NCBI GenBank assembly: GCA_031256725.1
Contig: JAIRQE010000005.1
Span: forward strand, 113,250 to 145,249
DNA: 32,000 nucleotides
Direction: 5' to 3'
DNA from: Propionibacteriaceae bacterium
GTDB taxonomy: Bacteria; Actinomycetota; Actinomycetes; Propionibacteriales; Propionibacteriaceae
A model generated the notes under the pieces. It saw nothing but the letters and a program-made list of their open reading frames with translations. It had not been told where the DNA came from and searched no databases. Position 1 is the stretch's first letter. Each line of letters begins with the position of its first letter. Position numbers and translations under genes: made by a program. Shown in pieces: positions 2,206-27,907 of this stretch.

Positions 2206-3138
2206 ATGACAGAAAAGAAAAGAAACATCACCCATCACTACACTCAACGGCAAACTGCCCTGAAAGCAGAAGCAGCCAAGAAGAGACGCAAACGCATCAT
2301 TATCACTGTTGTTGGTCTGATCGTAATCGCTCTTGTACCTGTGGGTGTTGTTCTATCTCAGTTGAACGACACCACATCAAGCAAGCCCAATACCCATGAT
2401 TTTCCGAGTGGGACACCACAGACTCCCCCCACCATAACCAAGGTCGGCGACATCCTCATCCCTCCGTATGGATCTGAGCAGATGGCTTGGATTACTACAA
2501 CCCACGCACCTAAACCCGATGCTCTCATTGTCAACGAACACGTTGAGTACCAATGTGACCGCTGCCAATTGGTACATTCCCTGTATAGCGACCTCTTCCA
2601 AGAACTCGCAGATCGTGGCGACATTGTTCTTCAGATACATCTCCGCTCATTCCTGGACAAAGGCACCTATGAATCCAATGGTGATGTTCTTGATGAGACT
2701 GCTCGCGGAATGAGTCTTTCCACCGTCGCTGCATCAGTCTGCGCCGATACGGTCGGGATGTTTTCTGCCTACCATGATGCTGCCTTCACCCACGCATATA
2801 AACAAACCCTGGATGCGTCCCTTGAGCAGTTGATCATACAGATCCCCAATGAGATCGGGATGACTGGTGGTGAACTGGAAAATTTCCAAGAATGTGTCAC
2901 CACCGAGATGATGCTCCCCTATGTCTATGCGATGGAGAAGACGAATCTCACATCTCGAACCATCAATGGCAAGGATCACGACACGGTTAGGGGAACTCCC
3001 GCTTTCTTCATCGACGGAAACTTCATGATGATGTCAGAGATCGTTGGTCTCACGGAGGACCAAACAGACTATATGGCGCTCTTTACCACTGCGGACGAGT
3101 TGCTTACCTACCTCATATCAGTTTCTAAGCTACCTTAA
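2206..3138 (+). CDS. DsbA-family thiol:disulfide oxidoreductase, membrane-anchored (paralogue 2)
   Basis: Same architecture as the preceding gene, so a tandem paralogue. The KAEAAKKRRKRIIITVVGLIVIALVPVGVVLSQ anchor is nearly identical. The CxxC is YQCDRCQ and the C-terminal motif is GTPAFF. Confidence 0.8.
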   Translation: MTEKKRNITHHYTQRQTALKAEAAKKRRKRIIITVVGLIVIALVPVGVVLSQLNDTTSSKPNTHDFPSGTPQTPPTITKVGDILIPPYGSEQMAWITTTHAPKPDALIVNEHVEYQCDRCQLVHSLYSDLFQELADRGDIVLQIHLRSFLDKGTYESNGDVLDETARGMSLSTVAASVCADTVGMFSAYHDAAFTHAYKQTLDASLEQLIIQIPNEIGMTGGELENFQECVTTEMMLPYVYAMEKTNLTSRTINGKDHDTVRGTPAFFIDGNFMMMSEIVGLTEDQTDYMALFTTADELLTYLISVSKLP

Positions 3139-8241: not shown

Positions 8242-8258
8242 CTCACCTCCAGTTCACT

Positions 8259-8290
8259 CTGTCATGCTGCGCGAAGTCGCAGCATCCAGA
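8259..8290 (-). repeat. hairpin repeat copy S1 (reverse orientation): TCTGG ATGCTGCG ACTTCG CGCAGCAT GACAG
   Basis: Perfect 8-bp stem (8264..8271 / 8278..8285) and 6-nt loop. Conserved flanks CTGTC (8259..8263) and CCAGA (8286..8290). It abuts the recO SD. Confidence 0.8.
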
Positions 8291-8315
8291 ATATCCAGTC
8301 TCAATGAATCCCAGG

Positions 8316-8348
8316 TCTGGATTCTGCGACTGTCGCGCAGAATGACAG
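8316..8348 (+). repeat. hairpin repeat copy S2: TCTGG ATTCTGCG ACTGTCG CGCAGAAT GACAG
   Basis: Perfect 8-bp stem (8321..8328 / 8336..8343) and 7-nt loop, with the same flanks as S1, S3 and S4. It ends 26 nt before the uppS ATG. Confidence 0.8.
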
Positions 8349-8373
8349 TGGTGCTCACGCTAGGATCAAGTCT

Positions 8374-12418: not shown

Positions 12419-12517
12419 AGGAATACTCTACTGGATTGAAATAGGGTCACAGTCACCACATTCACTCCCACGTTCATCAGCAAGTCCTATACGCCAAGAG
12501 ATACGTCCCCTGACACA

Positions 12518-12526
12518 CCCCCCCCC
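12518..12526. repeat. C9 (G9 on the purN strand) homopolymer tract
   Basis: Nine consecutive C at 12518..12526. They are flanked by the direct repeat CCCCTGACAC (12507..12516 and 12523..12532, overlapping the tract). Confidence 0.9.
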
Positions 12527-15086: not shown

Positions 15087-17699
15087 CTACAGCTTCTCCA
15101 CTGGGGAGTGTTTGAGCGAAAGGATCTTCGTACCATAGGAGCCGAAGTCGACCTTGGCTCGAGGATCGCCACTATGATCGAAGGCTTCGAGTACTGTACC
15201 CAATCCGAAGGAGGAGTGGATCACTCGGTCTCCAGCTACGAGATCAGGAACGATCTTAGGCTTTGCGGAGGTGGAACGGATCGAGGATTGAAGTTTTTCG
15301 GGTGCCGTTTTGGTACGCATCTGTGGAGTGGGAGCGACACTTGCCCCCCAGTTGGCGACTCGTCCCTGGCGGCGCCATTCGATGAGTCGTTCGGGAATCT
15401 CACTCAGGAATCGACTCTCGGGATTGTAGGCCGGATTCCCCCAGAGGGTACGTACCTCGCTGCGTGAGACATAGAGTCTGTTGCGGGCACGGGTCAATCC
15501 GACGTAGGCGAGACGTCTTTCCTCCTCTAGTTCTGCACGTGATGATTGGGCTCTCTCATGAGGGAATAACCCCTCCTCGAATCCAGTCACAAAGACAGTG
15601 TCGAACTCTAGCCCCTTGGCTGTGTGGAGGGTCATCAGGGTGACCACTGCCTCACCCACTTTCCCGTCAGGGATCTGATCGGAGTCGGCTACGAGAGCGA
15701 TCCTTTCCAGGAAGGCTGGCAGGGAGTCATCAGGTTCTGGTGCTCCCATGAGTCCTACGTGATTATCGTCGTGGGTTTCCCCGGATTCTTGTCTGGATCC
15801 TGCGACGGAGCGCAGGATGACGGGGTTGGACTCTGAACTACCCAACCATTCGCCTGCATCCCCGTCCAGGGGATCATCGTCATGGGTGATCCCATCCTCG
15901 ACATCAATCTCGTGAGCTGCCCCAACGAACTCCGTCGCAACAGCAATGAGTTCAGCGAGGTTCTCCAGTCGAGTCTCATCTTGGGGGTCTTGGGAATCCT
16001 TAAGAATGTCGAGATAACCAGACTCTTGAAGGATGGACCTCAGGATCTCGTCGGCGGGCACCCCCGCAGTAATCATCTCGCGATGCTTCGACATCAACTC
16101 AGCAAACCGAGCTAAGCCATTGACCGCACGAGCACTCAACCCCGGAATAGTGTCGGCACCCTCAATGGCTTCGGTAATCGTGATCGACTTCGCCCGAGCA
16201 TGAGACCTTACAGTCTCCTGAGTCGTATCCCCGATACCACGCCGAGGTACGTTGATGATCCGCTCAATAGACACCTCATCAGCCGGATTAGCCAAGGCCC
16301 TCAAATAGGCGATGGCATCGCGTACCTCCCGACGCTCATAGAACTTCACGCCACCGACAACCCGATAGGGAACCCCCAACCGAATGAAGACATCCTCAAC
16401 AGCCCGAGACTGGGCATTCGTACGATAAAAAACAGCCGCATCCCCTAACCGCGACTCCCCCGCAGCCGAGAGGGTTCGTATCTCGTCAGCGATAAACCGG
16501 GCCTCATCATGCTCGGTGTCCCCCACATAGCCAACCACAAGCGGACCATCTCCCGCATCAGTCCACAGGTTCTTCTCAGGCCGGGAACGATTGTGCCGAA
16601 TCAGTGAATTGGCAGCCGAAAGAATGTTCTGGGTCGAACGGTAATTCTGTTCCAGTTGGATGACCCGGGCACCCGGAAAGTCCTCAGAAAAGTTGAGGAT
16701 ATTCGTGATCGACGCCCCCCGGAAAGCATAGATCGACTGATCCGAATCACCAACCACCATCAACTCTGGAGCCTCACCATGCCCAGCCCCACCTTCAGGA
16801 GAACAGAGCAACTGTATTAACACGTACTGCGCATGGTTGGTGTCCTGATATTCATCCACAAGTACGTGCCGGAATCGCCGACGGTACTTCTCACGAACCT
16901 CTGAATGCTCCCGAAACAAACGTACTGTCGACATCAGAAGGTCATCAAAATCCAGAGCCTCGGCCGCAATCAAGCGATCCCTATATTCAGCATAAACCTC
17001 AGCATAAACACTCACTGGATATTTAGTACTCGAAGCCAAGGCCTCATCCGCCCACACCAGCGCATTCTTCTGATCAGAGATCCACGAGCGTACCGTTCGT
17101 ACAGGAAACTTCTTTGTATCCAGGTTCTTCTCGCGAAGAATCGTACTCACAAGTCTCTTCGAATCCATGTCATCGTAGATCGAAAAAGTCTTCGACACCC
17201 CAAGTTTGTCGATATCGGCCCGAAGGATGCGTACACACGCACTGTGGAAGGTCGCCACCCACATGTACCGCGAGCGATTCCCCACTAGTTCGCCAACCCG
17301 CTCCCTCATCTCAGCAGCAGCCTTATTCGTGAAGGTGATCGCCAGGATCGCACCAGGATGTACCCCACCAGCAGAGATCAAATAGGCAATCCTTCGAGTC
17401 AGTACACGAGTCTTCCCCGACCCTGCCCCCGCCACGACAAGCAGCGGTGACCCACAATGAAGGACAGCCTGCTCTTGCGGAGGATTGAGCCCCTCAACAA
17501 GGGCGGCAATACGATCAGCCTGAGAGGGTGAGTCATCGTCTCGAGAGTACCCATGGTCTGGCGAGAATCCTTGGTCGTGAGTGTACCCATCCTCAGTAGG
17601 AGGCTCAGCCTCAGGATCAGGTGGTGGCTCACTCATCTGTGCAGCGAACAGCGCCTCCACATCCTCTGCAGAGAAACCTTCATCAAACACCGAATTCAT
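15087..17699 (-). CDS. pcrA: ATP-dependent DNA helicase PcrA (UvrD/Rep superfamily 1)
   Basis: 870 aa. Walker A AGAGSGKTRVLT, VDEYQDTN, QNYRST, and LHTAKGLEFDTVFVTG followed by RRLAYVGLTRAR. It has an acidic N-terminal extension and a C-terminal Tudor-like tail typical of actinobacterial PcrA/UvrD1. Confidence 0.93.
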   Translation of the reverse strand: MNSVFDEGFSAEDVEALFAAQMSEPPPDPEAEPPTEDGYTHDQGFSPDHGYSRDDDSPSQADRIAALVEGLNPPQEQAVLHCGSPLLVVAGAGSGKTRVLTRRIAYLISAGGVHPGAILAITFTNKAAAEMRERVGELVGNRSRYMWVATFHSACVRILRADIDKLGVSKTFSIYDDMDSKRLVSTILREKNLDTKKFPVRTVRSWISDQKNALVWADEALASSTKYPVSVYAEVYAEYRDRLIAAEALDFDDLLMSTVRLFREHSEVREKYRRRFRHVLVDEYQDTNHAQYVLIQLLCSPEGGAGHGEAPELMVVGDSDQSIYAFRGASITNILNFSEDFPGARVIQLEQNYRSTQNILSAANSLIRHNRSRPEKNLWTDAGDGPLVVGYVGDTEHDEARFIADEIRTLSAAGESRLGDAAVFYRTNAQSRAVEDVFIRLGVPYRVVGGVKFYERREVRDAIAYLRALANPADEVSIERIINVPRRGIGDTTQETVRSHARAKSITITEAIEGADTIPGLSARAVNGLARFAELMSKHREMITAGVPADEILRSILQESGYLDILKDSQDPQDETRLENLAELIAVATEFVGAAHEIDVEDGITHDDDPLDGDAGEWLGSSESNPVILRSVAGSRQESGETHDDNHVGLMGAPEPDDSLPAFLERIALVADSDQIPDGKVGEAVVTLMTLHTAKGLEFDTVFVTGFEEGLFPHERAQSSRAELEEERRLAYVGLTRARNRLYVSRSEVRTLWGNPAYNPESRFLSEIPERLIEWRRQGRVANWGASVAPTPQMRTKTAPEKLQSSIRSTSAKPKIVPDLVAGDRVIHSSFGLGTVLEAFDHSGDPRAKVDFGSYGTKILSLKHSPVEKL
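15792..15823 (+). repeat. hairpin repeat copy S4 inside pcrA: TCTGG ATCCTGCG ACGGAG CGCAGGAT GACGG
   Basis: Perfect 8-bp stem (15797..15804 / 15811..15818). About 40 nt of near-identity to S3. Lies within the pcrA ORF. Confidence 0.8.
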
Positions 17700-17722
17700 C
17701 CTTCATCAAACACCGAATTCAT
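17677..17722. repeat. perfect 23-bp tandem duplication spanning the pcrA start codon
   Basis: CCTTCATCAAACACCGAATTCAT occurs at 17677..17699 and again at 17700..17722. Each copy contains CAT, which is ATG on the minus strand. Confidence 0.95.
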
Positions 17723-19123: not shown

Positions 19124-19157
19124 GGGGGTGTTAGGGGACGTATCTCTTGACACCCCC
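19124..19157. terminator. G/C-rich hairpin filling the convergent GlsB / response-regulator gap (putative bidirectional terminator or repeat element)
   Basis: GGGGGTGT (19124..19131) pairs with ACACCCCC (19150..19157). The 18-nt interior can pair further (GGGGA-CGTA-TCTCT with G.U pairs). There is no clear U-tract on either side. It lies 5 nt after the GlsB stop and 3 nt before the regulator stop. Confidence 0.45.
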
Positions 19158-23583: not shown

Positions 23584-23721
23584 GGGAATGTGTGACCGTT
23601 GCTTCGCGAGAGTACGTTCGCTTCCGTGCTCGCAAAGCGTAGCACGGGCTCTCTTAACTTCGACAAAATAGCTACGCAATTTGGTCTCGTGTCTCCCGCG
23701 AAGCAACGGTCACACATCCCC
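23584..23721. repeat. 138-bp nested inverted-repeat element between icd and the CNNM gene
   Basis: Arms 23584..23612 and 23693..23721. The core ATGTGTGACCGTTGCTTCGCG (23588..23608) pairs perfectly over 21 bp with 23697..23717. An inner hairpin CCGTGCT-CGC-AAA-GCG-T-AGCACGG lies at 23624..23647. A further hairpin GCGAAT-ACTG-ATTCGC lies at 23549..23564. Confidence 0.85.
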
Positions 23722-25234: not shown

Positions 25235-25921
25235 ATGTTGACCTTTATTTATGCTGCTTGTGCGGTTGCTCAGGCTGTGCTTGCTGTCTTCGCGATTCGG
25301 TTGTTCGTGAAAGACCGCACCCCAGGCAACTTCATGCTCATCCTTCCTATTGCAGCGGTCGTCTGGGACAACTCCATCGTCGCACTTGGGGCCACCATCG
25401 GGGATGGGCCACTTCTGGTTGGGCTCTCCTGGCCACGCTACATTGGGCATGCATTATTCACCCCCGCCTGGATCGTGGCTGCTGTTGGATTCGCGCAACG
25501 ATGCGGCTCACAATGGGCTAAGACAAAGATCGTCACCATCGGTCAGTGGGTTCTCTACGGAACATGTGTGATCCTGGGCTTCCTACGCTCAGTCATCTTT
25601 CTCGTCATGGAACCCTCCACTGAGGGCGGCCTGTTTTATTATCGTAACGCTGGTACATTCCCTGGCCCGCCCTTCGGCTCCGTCTTCATGCTTATCGTTG
25701 TCCTCATCTGTGCAGTTGAGGTACTGCGCCTCATCAAATCCCCCTGGATGCTCCTGGGGTCCCTCTACATGCTCATCACAGTCTTCATCCCCACCGATAT
25801 CGCGGGCTTCGTCTTCTCCAACTCCGGCGAAGTCATCATGGCATTATCCCTAGTCGCCACTGGGTACATCCTGTACAAACGCTTCCCTGAGTTGCGAGGT
25901 ACCTACTCCAGAGCCGACTAA
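25235..25921 (+). CDS. hypothetical polytopic membrane protein (about 7 TM), function unknown
   Basis: 228 aa and strongly hydrophobic throughout. SD GGAAAGGG precedes ATG 25235. I recognise no motif. Confidence 0.6.
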
Positions 25922-25928
25922 TGTACTT

Positions 25929-27365
25929 TCAACCCACGAGCAGGGGGCGTACCAAAGCGGCCATGTACAGCGATCCGGTCACGAGTACTTCTTCTGCCAG
26001 GTCATCTAAAAGTACACGCAGGGCTTGATCCAGATCATGGATGATCCTCACCGGTATCCCCAGGTCTTGGGCTATGGCTGCTACTTGGGTGGGTGGTACT
26101 GAGGCTTTAATCTTGTCGTCTTTGCCGAGTTGGAACTGCGGAACAATAAGATGGGAGACTACGGGAGCAAGAGCTGCCAGGGTTTCGAGGATCTTGGTTT
26201 CGGGAGCTTTGGTGAGAGTGGCGAGTGTTGGAAAAGGGCCTAGGCCTTGAGCTTGGATGGTTTCCACCAGGGAAGCTACTTTTTGTGGGTTGTGAGCGCC
26301 GTCTAGGAGTACGCGGTGGTGGCCTGTCTGTATCCATTCGAATCTTGCAGGTGGTACGACGTGCATGAGTTCATCGTGGTGGGTTGGGATTGTGAACTTG
26401 TCGCGTTGGGCTATGTGGGAGACTGCAGCAAGAGCCAGATCCCAGTTGCGGAGTTGGTACTGAGGGATCTGGATTCGAAGCGTGGATTGACCAGCACAAA
26501 GATCCAAGGTGTGACGGGACTCTGAATCCAGCGATGGAGCCTGAGAGTACATAGTTTCATCTTCGGCACAGATTTCCGAAGTATGGTGAGTCTGTGGATC
26601 CTGCGACTGCGCGCAGGATGACAGGGGTGGGATACAGGATGACGGGAGTGGGACACAGGATCCAGGAACGACAACCATCCGGGCGTTGATCTCATCCGTC
26701 TTGGACTTGATGACCTCCAGGACTTCCAGGGATTGGTCGACAACGAAAACCACTCCACCTTCTACGATGATCCCGGCTTTCTGGGCAGCGATCTCAGCAA
26801 TCGTACCCCCGAGTTTCTCAGTATGATCCAGCCCTATCGGTCCGATGACCGCAACCTTGTCTGAGCGATTGAGGATATTGGTGGCATCCCTTGTACCACC
26901 AATGCCCACTTCGACAACTGCATAATCGACCCGTTCCTGCGCGAAAACCCATATTGCTAAGCAGATCATGAGCTCAAAGTAGGTGAGGTGACCGCGCAGA
27001 GGTTCCAGGAGGCTCAGCATCTGGTCGGCATAGCGACACAAGCGTTCCTCCTCCAGGGGGAGTCCACCCACTTGTACCCTCTCGTTGAGGGTGACTATGT
27101 GGGGGGAGACTGTTAGCCCGGTACGAAAGCCGCTGGCTTCCAGGAGAGCGCGAATATAGTAGCAAGTCGAGGTTTTCCCGGAGGTACCTGTGATGTGAAT
27201 GACGCGTAGATCCTGCTCGGGATTACCCAGGAGGTCCATCGCCTTGGCCATAGCAGCCAGTGAGGATCGCCCTGACTCTCGTGTACCTGCAAAAGTGAAA
27301 AGATCCTTGAGGAGACGATCAAAACCCCCACGGTCTAAAGATCGCCCCAGGATAGAATCCTCCAT
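25929..27365 (-). CDS. folC: folylpolyglutamate synthase/dihydrofolate synthase-like Mur-ligase family protein, carrying a repeat-derived insertion
   Basis: P-loop ITGTSGKTST, VVEVGIGGTRDATNIL and GPIGLDHTEKLGGTIAEIAAQKAGII are FolC hallmarks. MEDSILG (ATG 27365) is taken as the start, overlapping the upstream gene's 3' end. The track extends to 27416. A low-complexity Cys/Pro/Ser segment is encoded at 26540..26665. Confidence 0.8.
   Translation of the reverse strand: MEDSILGRSLDRGGFDRLLKDLFTFAGTRESGRSSLAAMAKAMDLLGNPEQDLRVIHITGTSGKTSTCYYIRALLEASGFRTGLTVSPHIVTLNERVQVGGLPLEEERLCRYADQMLSLLEPLRGHLTYFELMICLAIWVFAQERVDYAVVEVGIGGTRDATNILNRSDKVAVIGPIGLDHTEKLGGTIAEIAAQKAGIIVEGGVVFVVDQSLEVLEVIKSKTDEINARMVVVPGSCVPLPSSCIPPLSSCAQSQDPQTHHTSEICAEDETMYSQAPSLDSESRHTLDLCAGQSTLRIQIPQYQLRNWDLALAAVSHIAQRDKFTIPTHHDELMHVVPPARFEWIQTGHHRVLLDGAHNPQKVASLVETIQAQGLGPFPTLATLTKAPETKILETLAALAPVVSHLIVPQFQLGKDDKIKASVPPTQVAAIAQDLGIPVRIIHDLDQALRVLLDDLAEEVLVTGSLYMAALVRPLLVG
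26591..26624 (+). repeat. hairpin repeat copy S3 inside the folC-like gene: TCTGTGG ATCCTGCG ACTGCG CGCAGGAT GACAG
   Basis: Perfect 8-bp stem (26598..26605 / 26612..26619). Lies within the ORF and is followed by tandem copies of its right arm. Confidence 0.8.
26614..26663 (+). repeat. 21-bp tandem repeat (2.4 units) derived from the right arm of S3
   Basis: CAGGATGACAGGGGTGGGATA (26614..26634) and CAGGATGACGGGAGTGGGACA (26635..26655) match at 18 of 21 positions. A partial unit CAGGATCC follows (26656..26663). On the coding strand they read CVPLPSS / CIPPLSS / CAQSQDP. Confidence 0.85.
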
Positions 27366-27907
27366 GCTCCTGGTTCCCCTTCCACGATGACGATGTCTGT
27401 GTTCTGCAGGCGCCACTTCGGATCGGAATCAGCCTTAACATCACTGCGAGCATTGAGCCATGTGTAGAGGGCACCGCCATGGCTCACCACGACTGCGCAT
27501 TCATAGTCCTGGAGTTCGGCGATGGCAGCATCAAAGCGGGCAAAGAAAGTGTGACCGTCATCCCCATTGGGCATCGATCTATCGAGGTCCTTAGGCCAGG
27601 ATGTGATGACCTCTTGGTACCCCGTCCATTCGACATCCATCTCCCAATCCCCTGCGAAGATCTCGCGTACCCCCGGGTGGGTGATCAGTGGAACCTTGAA
27701 GGTGGCAGCAATAGGCTCACCAGTTTGGCGGGCGCGAGTGATGTCCGAGGTCATGACGATCTCAATGGGTTCCCCCTCAAGTCTGCCAGGAAGACTCGCT
27801 GCCTGCTCTTCACCAACCTCATCAAGAGGAGCCCCTGGAAAGTCAGTATCAAGAAGGTGGTTGACGTTGGATTGGGTACGTCCATGACGTATGAAGATGA
27901 TGCGCAC
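27335..27907 (-). CDS. histidine phosphatase (phosphoglycerate-mutase-like) family protein
   Basis: MRIIFIRHGRTQSN (RHG catalytic motif) and a later VVVSHGG (second His). Confidence 0.85.
   Translation of the reverse strand: MRIIFIRHGRTQSNVNHLLDTDFPGAPLDEVGEEQAASLPGRLEGEPIEIVMTSDITRARQTGEPIAATFKVPLITHPGVREIFAGDWEMDVEWTGYQEVITSWPKDLDRSMPNGDDGHTFFARFDAAIAELQDYECAVVVSHGGALYTWLNARSDVKADSDPKWRLQNTDIVIVEGEPGAWRILSWGDL

Follow-up and report, generated by a model that had tools for sequence, protein, structure and literature searches.

A repeat block within folC of a Propionibacteriaceae bacterium is probably a translated copy of a dispersed non-coding hairpin element

The gene folC, which encodes dihydrofolate/folylpolyglutamate synthase, carries a short block of repeats (26591-26663) in a Propionibacteriaceae bacterium whose chromosome was analysed here over a stretch of 32,000 nt (GenBank assembly GCA_031256725.1, contig JAIRQE010000005.1, positions 113,250 to 145,249; hereafter the window, to which all positions refer unless another locus is named). 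This block is probably one copy of a selfish hairpin, dispersed and non-coding, that has lodged in a gene and been tolerated there in frame; the hairpin is similar to repetitive extragenic palindromes (REPs) and their inverted doublets (REPINs). The hairpin belongs to a family with copies in many bacterial phyla, the FolC segment in which it lies is an insertion that nearly all homologues lack and that is predicted to be disordered, and hairpins of the same kind recur in the same FolC loop and in the PcrA linker of other lineages.

Structure of the repeat block in folC

Re-reading of the sequence reproduced the block as it had been described in an initial annotation, with its coordinates and its two bracketing 9-mers (TGGATCCTG at 26595-26603 and CAGGATCCA at 26656-26664). 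In the coding sense the block runs GGATCCTG / TGTCCCACTCCC-GTCATCCTG / TATCCCACCCCT-GTCATCCTG / CGCGCAGTCGCAGGATCC, and the open reading frame (ORF) continues across it (...VVVPGSCVPLPSSCIPPLSSCAQSQDPQ...; in a longer reading ...VVVPGSCVPLPSSCIPPLSSCAQSQDPQTHH...), with the full hairpin translated as S-S-C-A-Q-S-Q-D-P. The tandem structure is real, being called by Tandem Repeats Finder at 26614-26661 with a period of 21, 2.3 copies, 88% matches and a score of 75. What had been taken for an amplified right arm is, however, in the coding sense the 5′ leader and the left half-arm of the hairpin: each 21-nt unit joins a C-rich leader of 12 nt to the left half-arm, and the units encode CVPLPSS and CIPPLSS.

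Hairpin copies in the window

The core of the element, 27-28 nt in length, reads GTCAT-N-CTGCG-loop (usually CGMAGT)-CGCAG-N′-ATCC and forms a stem of 8 bp; in this genome a C-rich leader, ATCCCACCCCT, precedes it. With up to three mismatches allowed, the pattern GGATCCTGCG-N6-CGCAGGAT matches the window five times, compared with 0.01 expected, and a profile built from the copies of other genomes only finds exactly four full copies (E values from 1e-9 to 1e-12; 1.7e-12 for that in folC). All four are perfect or near-perfect palindromes with an 8-bp stem, as REPs are, and their N:N′ stem pairs, listed in the oriented alignment, are G:C, T:A, C:G and C:G. Two of the copies are intergenic, and those in folC and pcrA are, as their translations confirm, read one frame apart; the conservation thus lies at the level of DNA, as had been proposed.

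The copy in pcrA (...NPVILRSVAGSRQ... in translation) leaves the ORF intact. It is positioned in a hypervariable linker (query residues 593-655) of 63 residues, whereas mycobacterial UvrD1 has 16 there and Geobacillus PcrA about 2, and the profile match of the window pcrA falls just below the model cutoff. Both the folC and the pcrA copies are singletons. The two copies in the recO/uppS spacer form a tail-to-tail inverted pair, and the region 8250-8360 folds as one 111-nt hairpin (−56.3 kcal/mol; z = −7.7), with none of 200 shuffled sequences folding as well.

Two other repeats were observed around pcrA. At its start (17677-17722, minus strand), a perfect 23-bp tandem duplication (ATGAATTCGGTGTTTGATGAAGG x2) extends across the start codon, and the upstream copy creates an out-of-frame mini-ORF of eight codons whose TGA overlaps the second ATG (ATGA). 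Moreover, the 26-nt sequence CAAGAGATACGTCCCCTGACACACCC is found at 12495-12520 and, inverted, at 19124-19149 (6.6 kb apart, two mismatches, 0 expected); this pair flanks the DUF6350-pcrA-dehydrogenase block and may belong to another family of repeats or serve as a common operator.

Distribution of the hairpin family

Genomes, one per species, were scanned with GTCATNCTGCG-N(4-9)-CGCAGNATCC, yielding at least 146 copies at no fewer than 120 loci, against approximately 26 matches expected by chance according to our estimate. Among the matches listed, the loop, which the scan leaves free, is CGAAGT, CGCAGT or CGTAGT in 94 of 146 copies, and 142 of the 146 have a Watson-Crick pair at the free stem position, where four pair types occur. 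A loop and a stem pairing that are shared at unconstrained positions identify these copies as one family rather than as chance matches. The consensus of 114 copies begins GTCATCCTGCG..., every copy starts with GTCA(T), and the part conserved between lineages is the core of ~30 nt only; over 40 nt, the folC copy with its leader shares 39 with a copy from Vitreoscilla. The hosts, among the same matches, include Alpha-, Beta-, Gamma- and Deltaproteobacteria, Oscillospiraceae, Christensenellaceae, Coriobacteriia, Propionibacteriaceae, Microbacteriaceae, Endomicrobia, Bacteroidales and others; Leucobacter celer and Thiomicrospira microaerophila are cultured examples of carriers. Tail-to-tail partners accompany the hairpin at many of the scanned loci and also at two loci with intragenic copies (L121 and L124).

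About one-third of the at least 120 listed loci come from metagenome-assembled genomes (MAGs) of termite guts, as judged from isolate names, a share that may be biased; the carriers there belong to very different phyla and include Oscillospiraceae, Coriobacteriia, Endomicrobia, Desulfovibrionaceae, Burkholderiales and Propionibacteriaceae. Such a share hints at spread within one habitat.

A full-text literature search with the core and its 12-mers returned no paper containing the core, only coincidences with primers. The core is absent from the plasmids of PLSDB and has only two matches in IMG/VR, so that a plasmid or phage vector is unsupported.

The insert in FolC

The window folC is an intact gene. 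Its product scores 280.8 bits against the NCBIfam model TIGR01499 (cutoff, 162.65), which places it within FolC, and it keeps every one of the 44 alignment columns that do not vary among 116 FolC homologues; hence it is no pseudogene. The match to TIGR01499 breaks into two stretches exactly at the insert, at residue 196. Between the anchors that flank this site, the 116 homologues have a median of 9 residues and the window protein has 67; more than 35 residues are found in 5 of the 116, while the other 111 are without any long segment, so that comparison with homologues identifies the segment as an insertion. In the AlphaFold model of the window FolC (P0001; mean predicted local distance difference test score (pLDDT), 86.8), pLDDT values below 50 are confined to residues 201-255, which are modelled as coil without secondary structure. 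The insert is accordingly predicted to be a disordered loop, a possibility that the initial annotation had raised.

The same annotation had viewed the segment as a possible linker between the central and the C-terminal domains, a placement that does not hold. The insert maps between residues ~222 and 257 of Lactobacillus casei folylpolyglutamate synthase (FPGS), within the central domain; in the AlphaFold model it follows the strand at residues 191-195, three helices come next and the C-terminal domain begins near residue 305. Its position is ~40 residues ahead of the interdomain linker, which we take to lie at about residues 295-300 of the L. casei enzyme.

The repeat block makes up only the first third of the insert. 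The other 130 nt are unique among the collected sequences (blastn-short), and neither the family profile nor blastn-short found an inverted partner, a decayed copy or a repeat in them; a candidate decayed second copy was picked out by eye on weak evidence (Table 1). An intein, a domain insertion and a pseudogene were each considered and rejected, as the insert has no Pfam match and is predicted to be coil, and as the ORF is intact with its invariant residues kept.

Recurrence at the same loops in relatives

Four further FolC proteins, from three lineages, carry a long insert at the same loop, and all of these inserts derive from GTCAT hairpins (Table 1). At L122 and L123 the loop holds a sister hairpin, GTCATTCCGGC-gaag-GCCGGGA; the two proteins concerned, P0013 and P0021, are 92% identical, and one 30-nt unit, 9 residues in the protein comparison, is the sole gap between them. 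FolC proteins with an insert are dispersed over a neighbour-joining tree, and each has sisters that lack one, which points either to a hot spot that gained inserts several times independently or to one old gain followed by many clean losses.

A parallel series was found in PcrA: P0124 (L124) carries three identical 21-nt units, a hairpin and its inverted partner, P0123 (L125) a degenerate version with one degenerate unit, and P0126 only a remnant. In P0124 and P0123 the element begins 8-9 residues past the same conserved Trp and is read in the frame of the window copy (VIL...AGS), and compensatory changes distinguish the PcrA stems (CTGCG/CGCAG, CTGCC/GGCAG and CTGAC/GTCAG). The in-frame change of unit number that the initial annotation foresaw is therefore seen among relatives of both proteins (P0013 versus P0021; P0124, P0123 and P0126).

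In addition, a core-family copy with the loop GCTTGAC lies in the catalytic domain of tyrS in a Rickettsiales MAG (L033, 5424-5451), where the profile match of TyrS takes up 340 residues over 290 profile positions. Intragenic copies outside the window were found at L121, L122, L123, L124, L125, L126 and L033. Ten long stop-free frames span copies elsewhere, of which only the Rickettsiales tyrS is truly intragenic; in five of the other nine the sole recognised domain lies downstream of the copy, and four have no Pfam match.

As a separate observation, the P0022 insert also contains a perfect 26-nt tandem duplication (GGACTGGAACCGTCCCGTTTGTCCGC x2), situated downstream of its hairpin pair (L121, 3360-3425).

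Half-copy arrays and unit periods

The tandem had initially been regarded as an amplification specific to folC. Among the matches listed, however, a half-copy lies within 45 nt upstream of 21 of the 138 full copies elsewhere (downstream of 2), and for 13 of these 21 the nearest period is 19-25 nt. The architecture of leader and half-arm was found at L124, L121, L126, L097, L002 and L078: for example, at least seven units of 25 nt (L002, 3400-3581; an Alcanivorax MAG) and six units of 16 nt (L078, 6860-6950; a betaproteobacterial MAG) each stand beside a full hairpin. The half-copy tandem belongs to the repeat family as such and is not peculiar to folC. The five coding arrays have periods of 21, 21, 21, 24 and 30 nt, all of them multiples of 3, as predicted by purifying selection on the reading frame; elsewhere, at copies presumed to be non-coding, 1 of 13 short periods is divisible by 3.

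The Cys/Pro heptads of the folC block, the composition of which shows no sign of selection, arise because of the frame in which the C-rich leader and GTCATCCTG are read. The same DNA gives PSSVILP in the PcrA of L124 and IPPSHPDT in the FolC of L121.

Table 1. Features of the window and inserts of related FolC proteins.
Feature	Position or locus	Strand	Description
folC ORF	25929..27416	minus	Mur_ligase_M and Mur_ligase_C domains; dihydrofolate/folylpolyglutamate synthase
FolC insert relative to homologues	26470..26663	minus	~174 nt, ~58 residues (PGSCVPL...QSTLRIQ), after strand VVVP of the central domain
Full hairpin copy in folC	26596..26622	minus	GTCAT-C-CTGCG-CGCAGT-CGCAG-G-ATCC; stem 8 bp, ATCCTGCG/CGCAGGAT
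21-nt tandem units	26614..26663	minus	Coding sense GGATCCTG / TGTCCCACTCCCGTCATCCTG / TATCCCACCCCTGTCATCCTG / full hairpin
Candidate decayed second copy	26468..26491	minus	GTCAATCCACGCTTCGAATCCAGA, GTCA start and AATCCAGA end; by eye, weak evidence
pcrA copy	15795..15821	minus	GTCATCCTGCG-CTCCGT-CGCAGGATCC, read V-I-L-R-S-V-A-G-S
Intergenic copy, G:C stem variant	8261..8287	plus	recO/uppS spacer; left half of inverted pair
Intergenic copy, T:A stem variant, 7-nt loop	8319..8346	minus	Right half of tail-to-tail inverted pair
P0022 FolC	L121		Three 24-nt units, full hairpin ATCCTGAC/GTCAGGAT, inverted partner
P0013 FolC	L122		Sister hairpin GTCATTCCGGC... and inverted partner; 30-nt unit of the partner x2
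P0021 FolC	L123		As P0013, with the 30-nt unit x1
P0028 FolC	L126		21-nt half-copy and decayed hairpin

Comparison with known elements

The GTCAT hairpin resembles the REP and REPIN elements associated with REP-associated tyrosine transposases (RAYTs; Y1 HUH transposases) in being a dispersed 20-30-nt palindrome that has a 5′ motif at the foot of its stem and shows stem covariation; the inverted doublet that folds as one long hairpin, seen at 8250-8360 and at many other loci, is likewise a feature of REPINs. RAYT-associated REPs are, however, defined by the 5′ tetranucleotide GT[AG]G that immediately precedes the palindrome and are described as almost exclusively intergenic (PMC3686654), whereas the motif here is GTCA(T) and two of the four window copies lie inside genes. 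Moreover, REPs are described as lineage-specific, whereas the present core and loop span many phyla. In REPIN/RAYT systems a RAYT gene is present once and has its cognate REPs on either side; no RAYT gene was seen among the most frequent families adjoining the copies.

With regard to occurrence within genes, the hairpin is like the Rickettsia palindromic elements (RPEs; Ogata et al. 2000, as summarised in PMC10969869), which are selfish palindromes lying in frame in housekeeping genes and translated with them. Like RPEs, the GTCAT hairpin stays in frame in unrelated housekeeping genes at sites compatible with the fold, and a Rickettsiales MAG itself carries a GTCAT-family copy inside tyrS (L033). 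RPEs are set apart in being ~100-150 bp long, specific to Rickettsia and in encoding a conserved peptide of their family; the GTCAT core is 27-28 nt, is read in several frames, crosses phyla and is reiterated as half-copies.

Coding variable-number tandem repeats and contingency loci share with the folC block a unit that is a multiple of 3 and a copy number that differs between relatives. They differ in that the unit here comes from a dispersed non-coding element and not from the gene itself; furthermore, there is no sign of phase or antigenic variation, and the hosts are cytoplasmic housekeeping enzymes. The dRS3 repeat of the Neisseria intergenic mosaic elements (ATTCCC-N8-GGGAAT) is another short hairpin, with similar flanks (GTCAT...ATCC), that occurs in arrays and is known to be targeted by filamentous prophages and by integrases of the IS110/Piv type. 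The hairpin GTCATTCCGGC-gaag-GCCGGGA in the FolC loop of L122 and L123 may be of a similar type, yet the stem sequence differs and neither an IS110/Piv integrase nor a filamentous prophage was seen with the GTCAT hairpins.

Origin of the block and alternative explanations

If the folC block is a selfish hairpin tolerated in frame, the element, alone or with flanking DNA, would have entered an insertion-tolerant surface loop of FolC. Translation through the core is possible, since five of its six reading frames are free of stop codons, and selection on an essential gene would retain frame-preserving versions only. The 21-bp tandem most likely arose from replication errors at the hairpin, by strand slippage or template switching, an aberrant action of the mobilising enzyme being a less likely source. 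The Cys/Pro heptads would then be passengers in a disordered loop, with no sign of a function of their own, and the block as a whole is most likely neutral passenger DNA.

Several observations weigh against this account. All-against-all clustering of ~2,900 ORFs from the at least 120 loci revealed no recurrent neighbour family that could supply a mobilising gene, and the 25 most frequent Pfam families among 106 ORFs adjoining copies are housekeeping families only, without a transposase; nor was a transposase found in the window. Since no mobilising gene neighbours the copies, it is their distribution (that is, dispersal together with insert-less orthologues) that argues for mobility. The available relatives include no empty site, the nearest FolC being ~65% identical to that of the window, and no target-site duplication, which together with terminal inverted repeats would mark a miniature inverted-repeat transposable element (MITE), was visible by eye beside the folC insert. 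The element does not have the GT[AG]G tetranucleotide, the count of four copies covers the 32-kb window only, and the recurrence at the same loops and the compensatory stems in PcrA orthologues could reflect a selected function in cis.

Such a function, with the hairpin kept as an RNA element (mRNA stability, processing or translation pausing) or as DNA recognised by a host protein, as for REPs and bacterial interspersed mosaic elements, would agree with the Watson-Crick pairing at the free stem position in all but four of the 146 listed copies, with the hairpin (CTGCG/CGCAG versus CTGCC/GGCAG) being held at one spot of the otherwise unalignable PcrA linker, and with the pcrA hairpin folding better as RNA than its shuffles (z = −2.8). 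Covariation is, however, equally expected if the enzyme that moves the hairpin recognises it, and most folC and pcrA orthologues do without it. The folC hairpin is not followed 3′ by a T run and hence is no intrinsic terminator, the whole folC block folds no better than shuffled sequences (z = −1.8 in sense and −0.2 in antisense), and a scan of the window with Rfam gave no family for the hairpin. We therefore consider a cis element unlikely.

Selection may instead have acted on the peptide, with the 21-bp units forming a length-variable Cys/Pro linker whose copy number tunes FolC as a contingency locus or a flexible tether. The units are indeed in frame, their number differs in close relatives (FolC P0013 and P0021; PcrA P0124 versus P0123 and P0126) and the periods of all five coding arrays are divisible by 3, although purifying selection on folC alone would keep the frame. 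The same DNA gives CVPLPSS, PSSVILP and IPPSHPDT, with no peptide conserved between genes or lineages, and identical units occur in the intergenic DNA of unrelated phyla; moreover, the insert is missing in 111 of 116 homologues, the nearest sisters included, and the segment, for which disorder is predicted, lies in the central domain rather than in a domain linker. A selected linker is on these grounds quite improbable. Least credible of all, to the point of being nearly dismissible, is misassembly in a metagenome bin rich in repeats. The gene is known from a single metagenomic contig and from no second sample (the P0001 and P0121 clusters are only alternative start calls of one contig), yet the units differ at 3 of 21 positions, the 48-bp array is below read length, the ORF is open and in frame, and like arrays are present in independent assemblies (L121 from JGI, L124 from ENA, and L002 and L078 from GenBank MAGs). 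A tolerated copy of a selfish hairpin thus stays our preferred explanation of the folC block.

A wider proposal, which we put forward as speculative and rather doubtful, is that the GTCAT hairpin constitutes an undescribed cross-phylum mobile family, moved by an enzyme other than a classical RAYT, which repeatedly targets the same loops of such essential genes as folC, pcrA and tyrS and grows there by half-copies. Were this so, the family would be a general source of disordered loops in bacterial proteins, in frame and variable in length.

Implications

To our knowledge, selfish palindromes in frame in housekeeping genes are a textbook case for Rickettsia only. A second and unrelated case, in Actinobacteria and with a 27-nt hairpin found across phyla, would suggest a wider phenomenon. 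The FolC and PcrA loops, which hold 0, 1, 2 or 3 units across lineages, offer a tractable system for the entry, expansion and loss of repeats in coding DNA, and a cross-phylum core for which no transposase was found poses the question of what recognises the hairpin. For annotation, such inserts can split a profile match (folC) or push it below the cutoff (pcrA), and translated repeats can pass for meaningful Cys/Pro motifs. Of interest to specialists are the cross-phylum core, the upstream bias of the half-copy arrays (21 versus 2) and the recurrent occupation of the folC and pcrA loops.

Other features of the window

The genes of the window are those of an ordinary chromosome (purine genes, recO, uppS, pcrA, icd and folC). 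Between icd and folC lies an ORF of 228 residues without a Pfam match (25235-25921, plus strand); at L122 and L125 icd directly follows folC, and at L126 a Mem_trans gene is found there, so that the icd/folC spacer is variable. A 29-nt inverted repeat (23584-23612 and 23693-23721; 93% complementary, arms 80 nt apart) occupies the spacer that follows icd and precedes a CNNM/CorC gene, and is unrelated to the GTCAT hairpins. Finally, two neighbouring paralogous genes (1290-2192 and 2206-3138), one of them with a thioredoxin-like domain, are 71% identical over a stretch of 98 nt (1368-1465 and 2263-2360).

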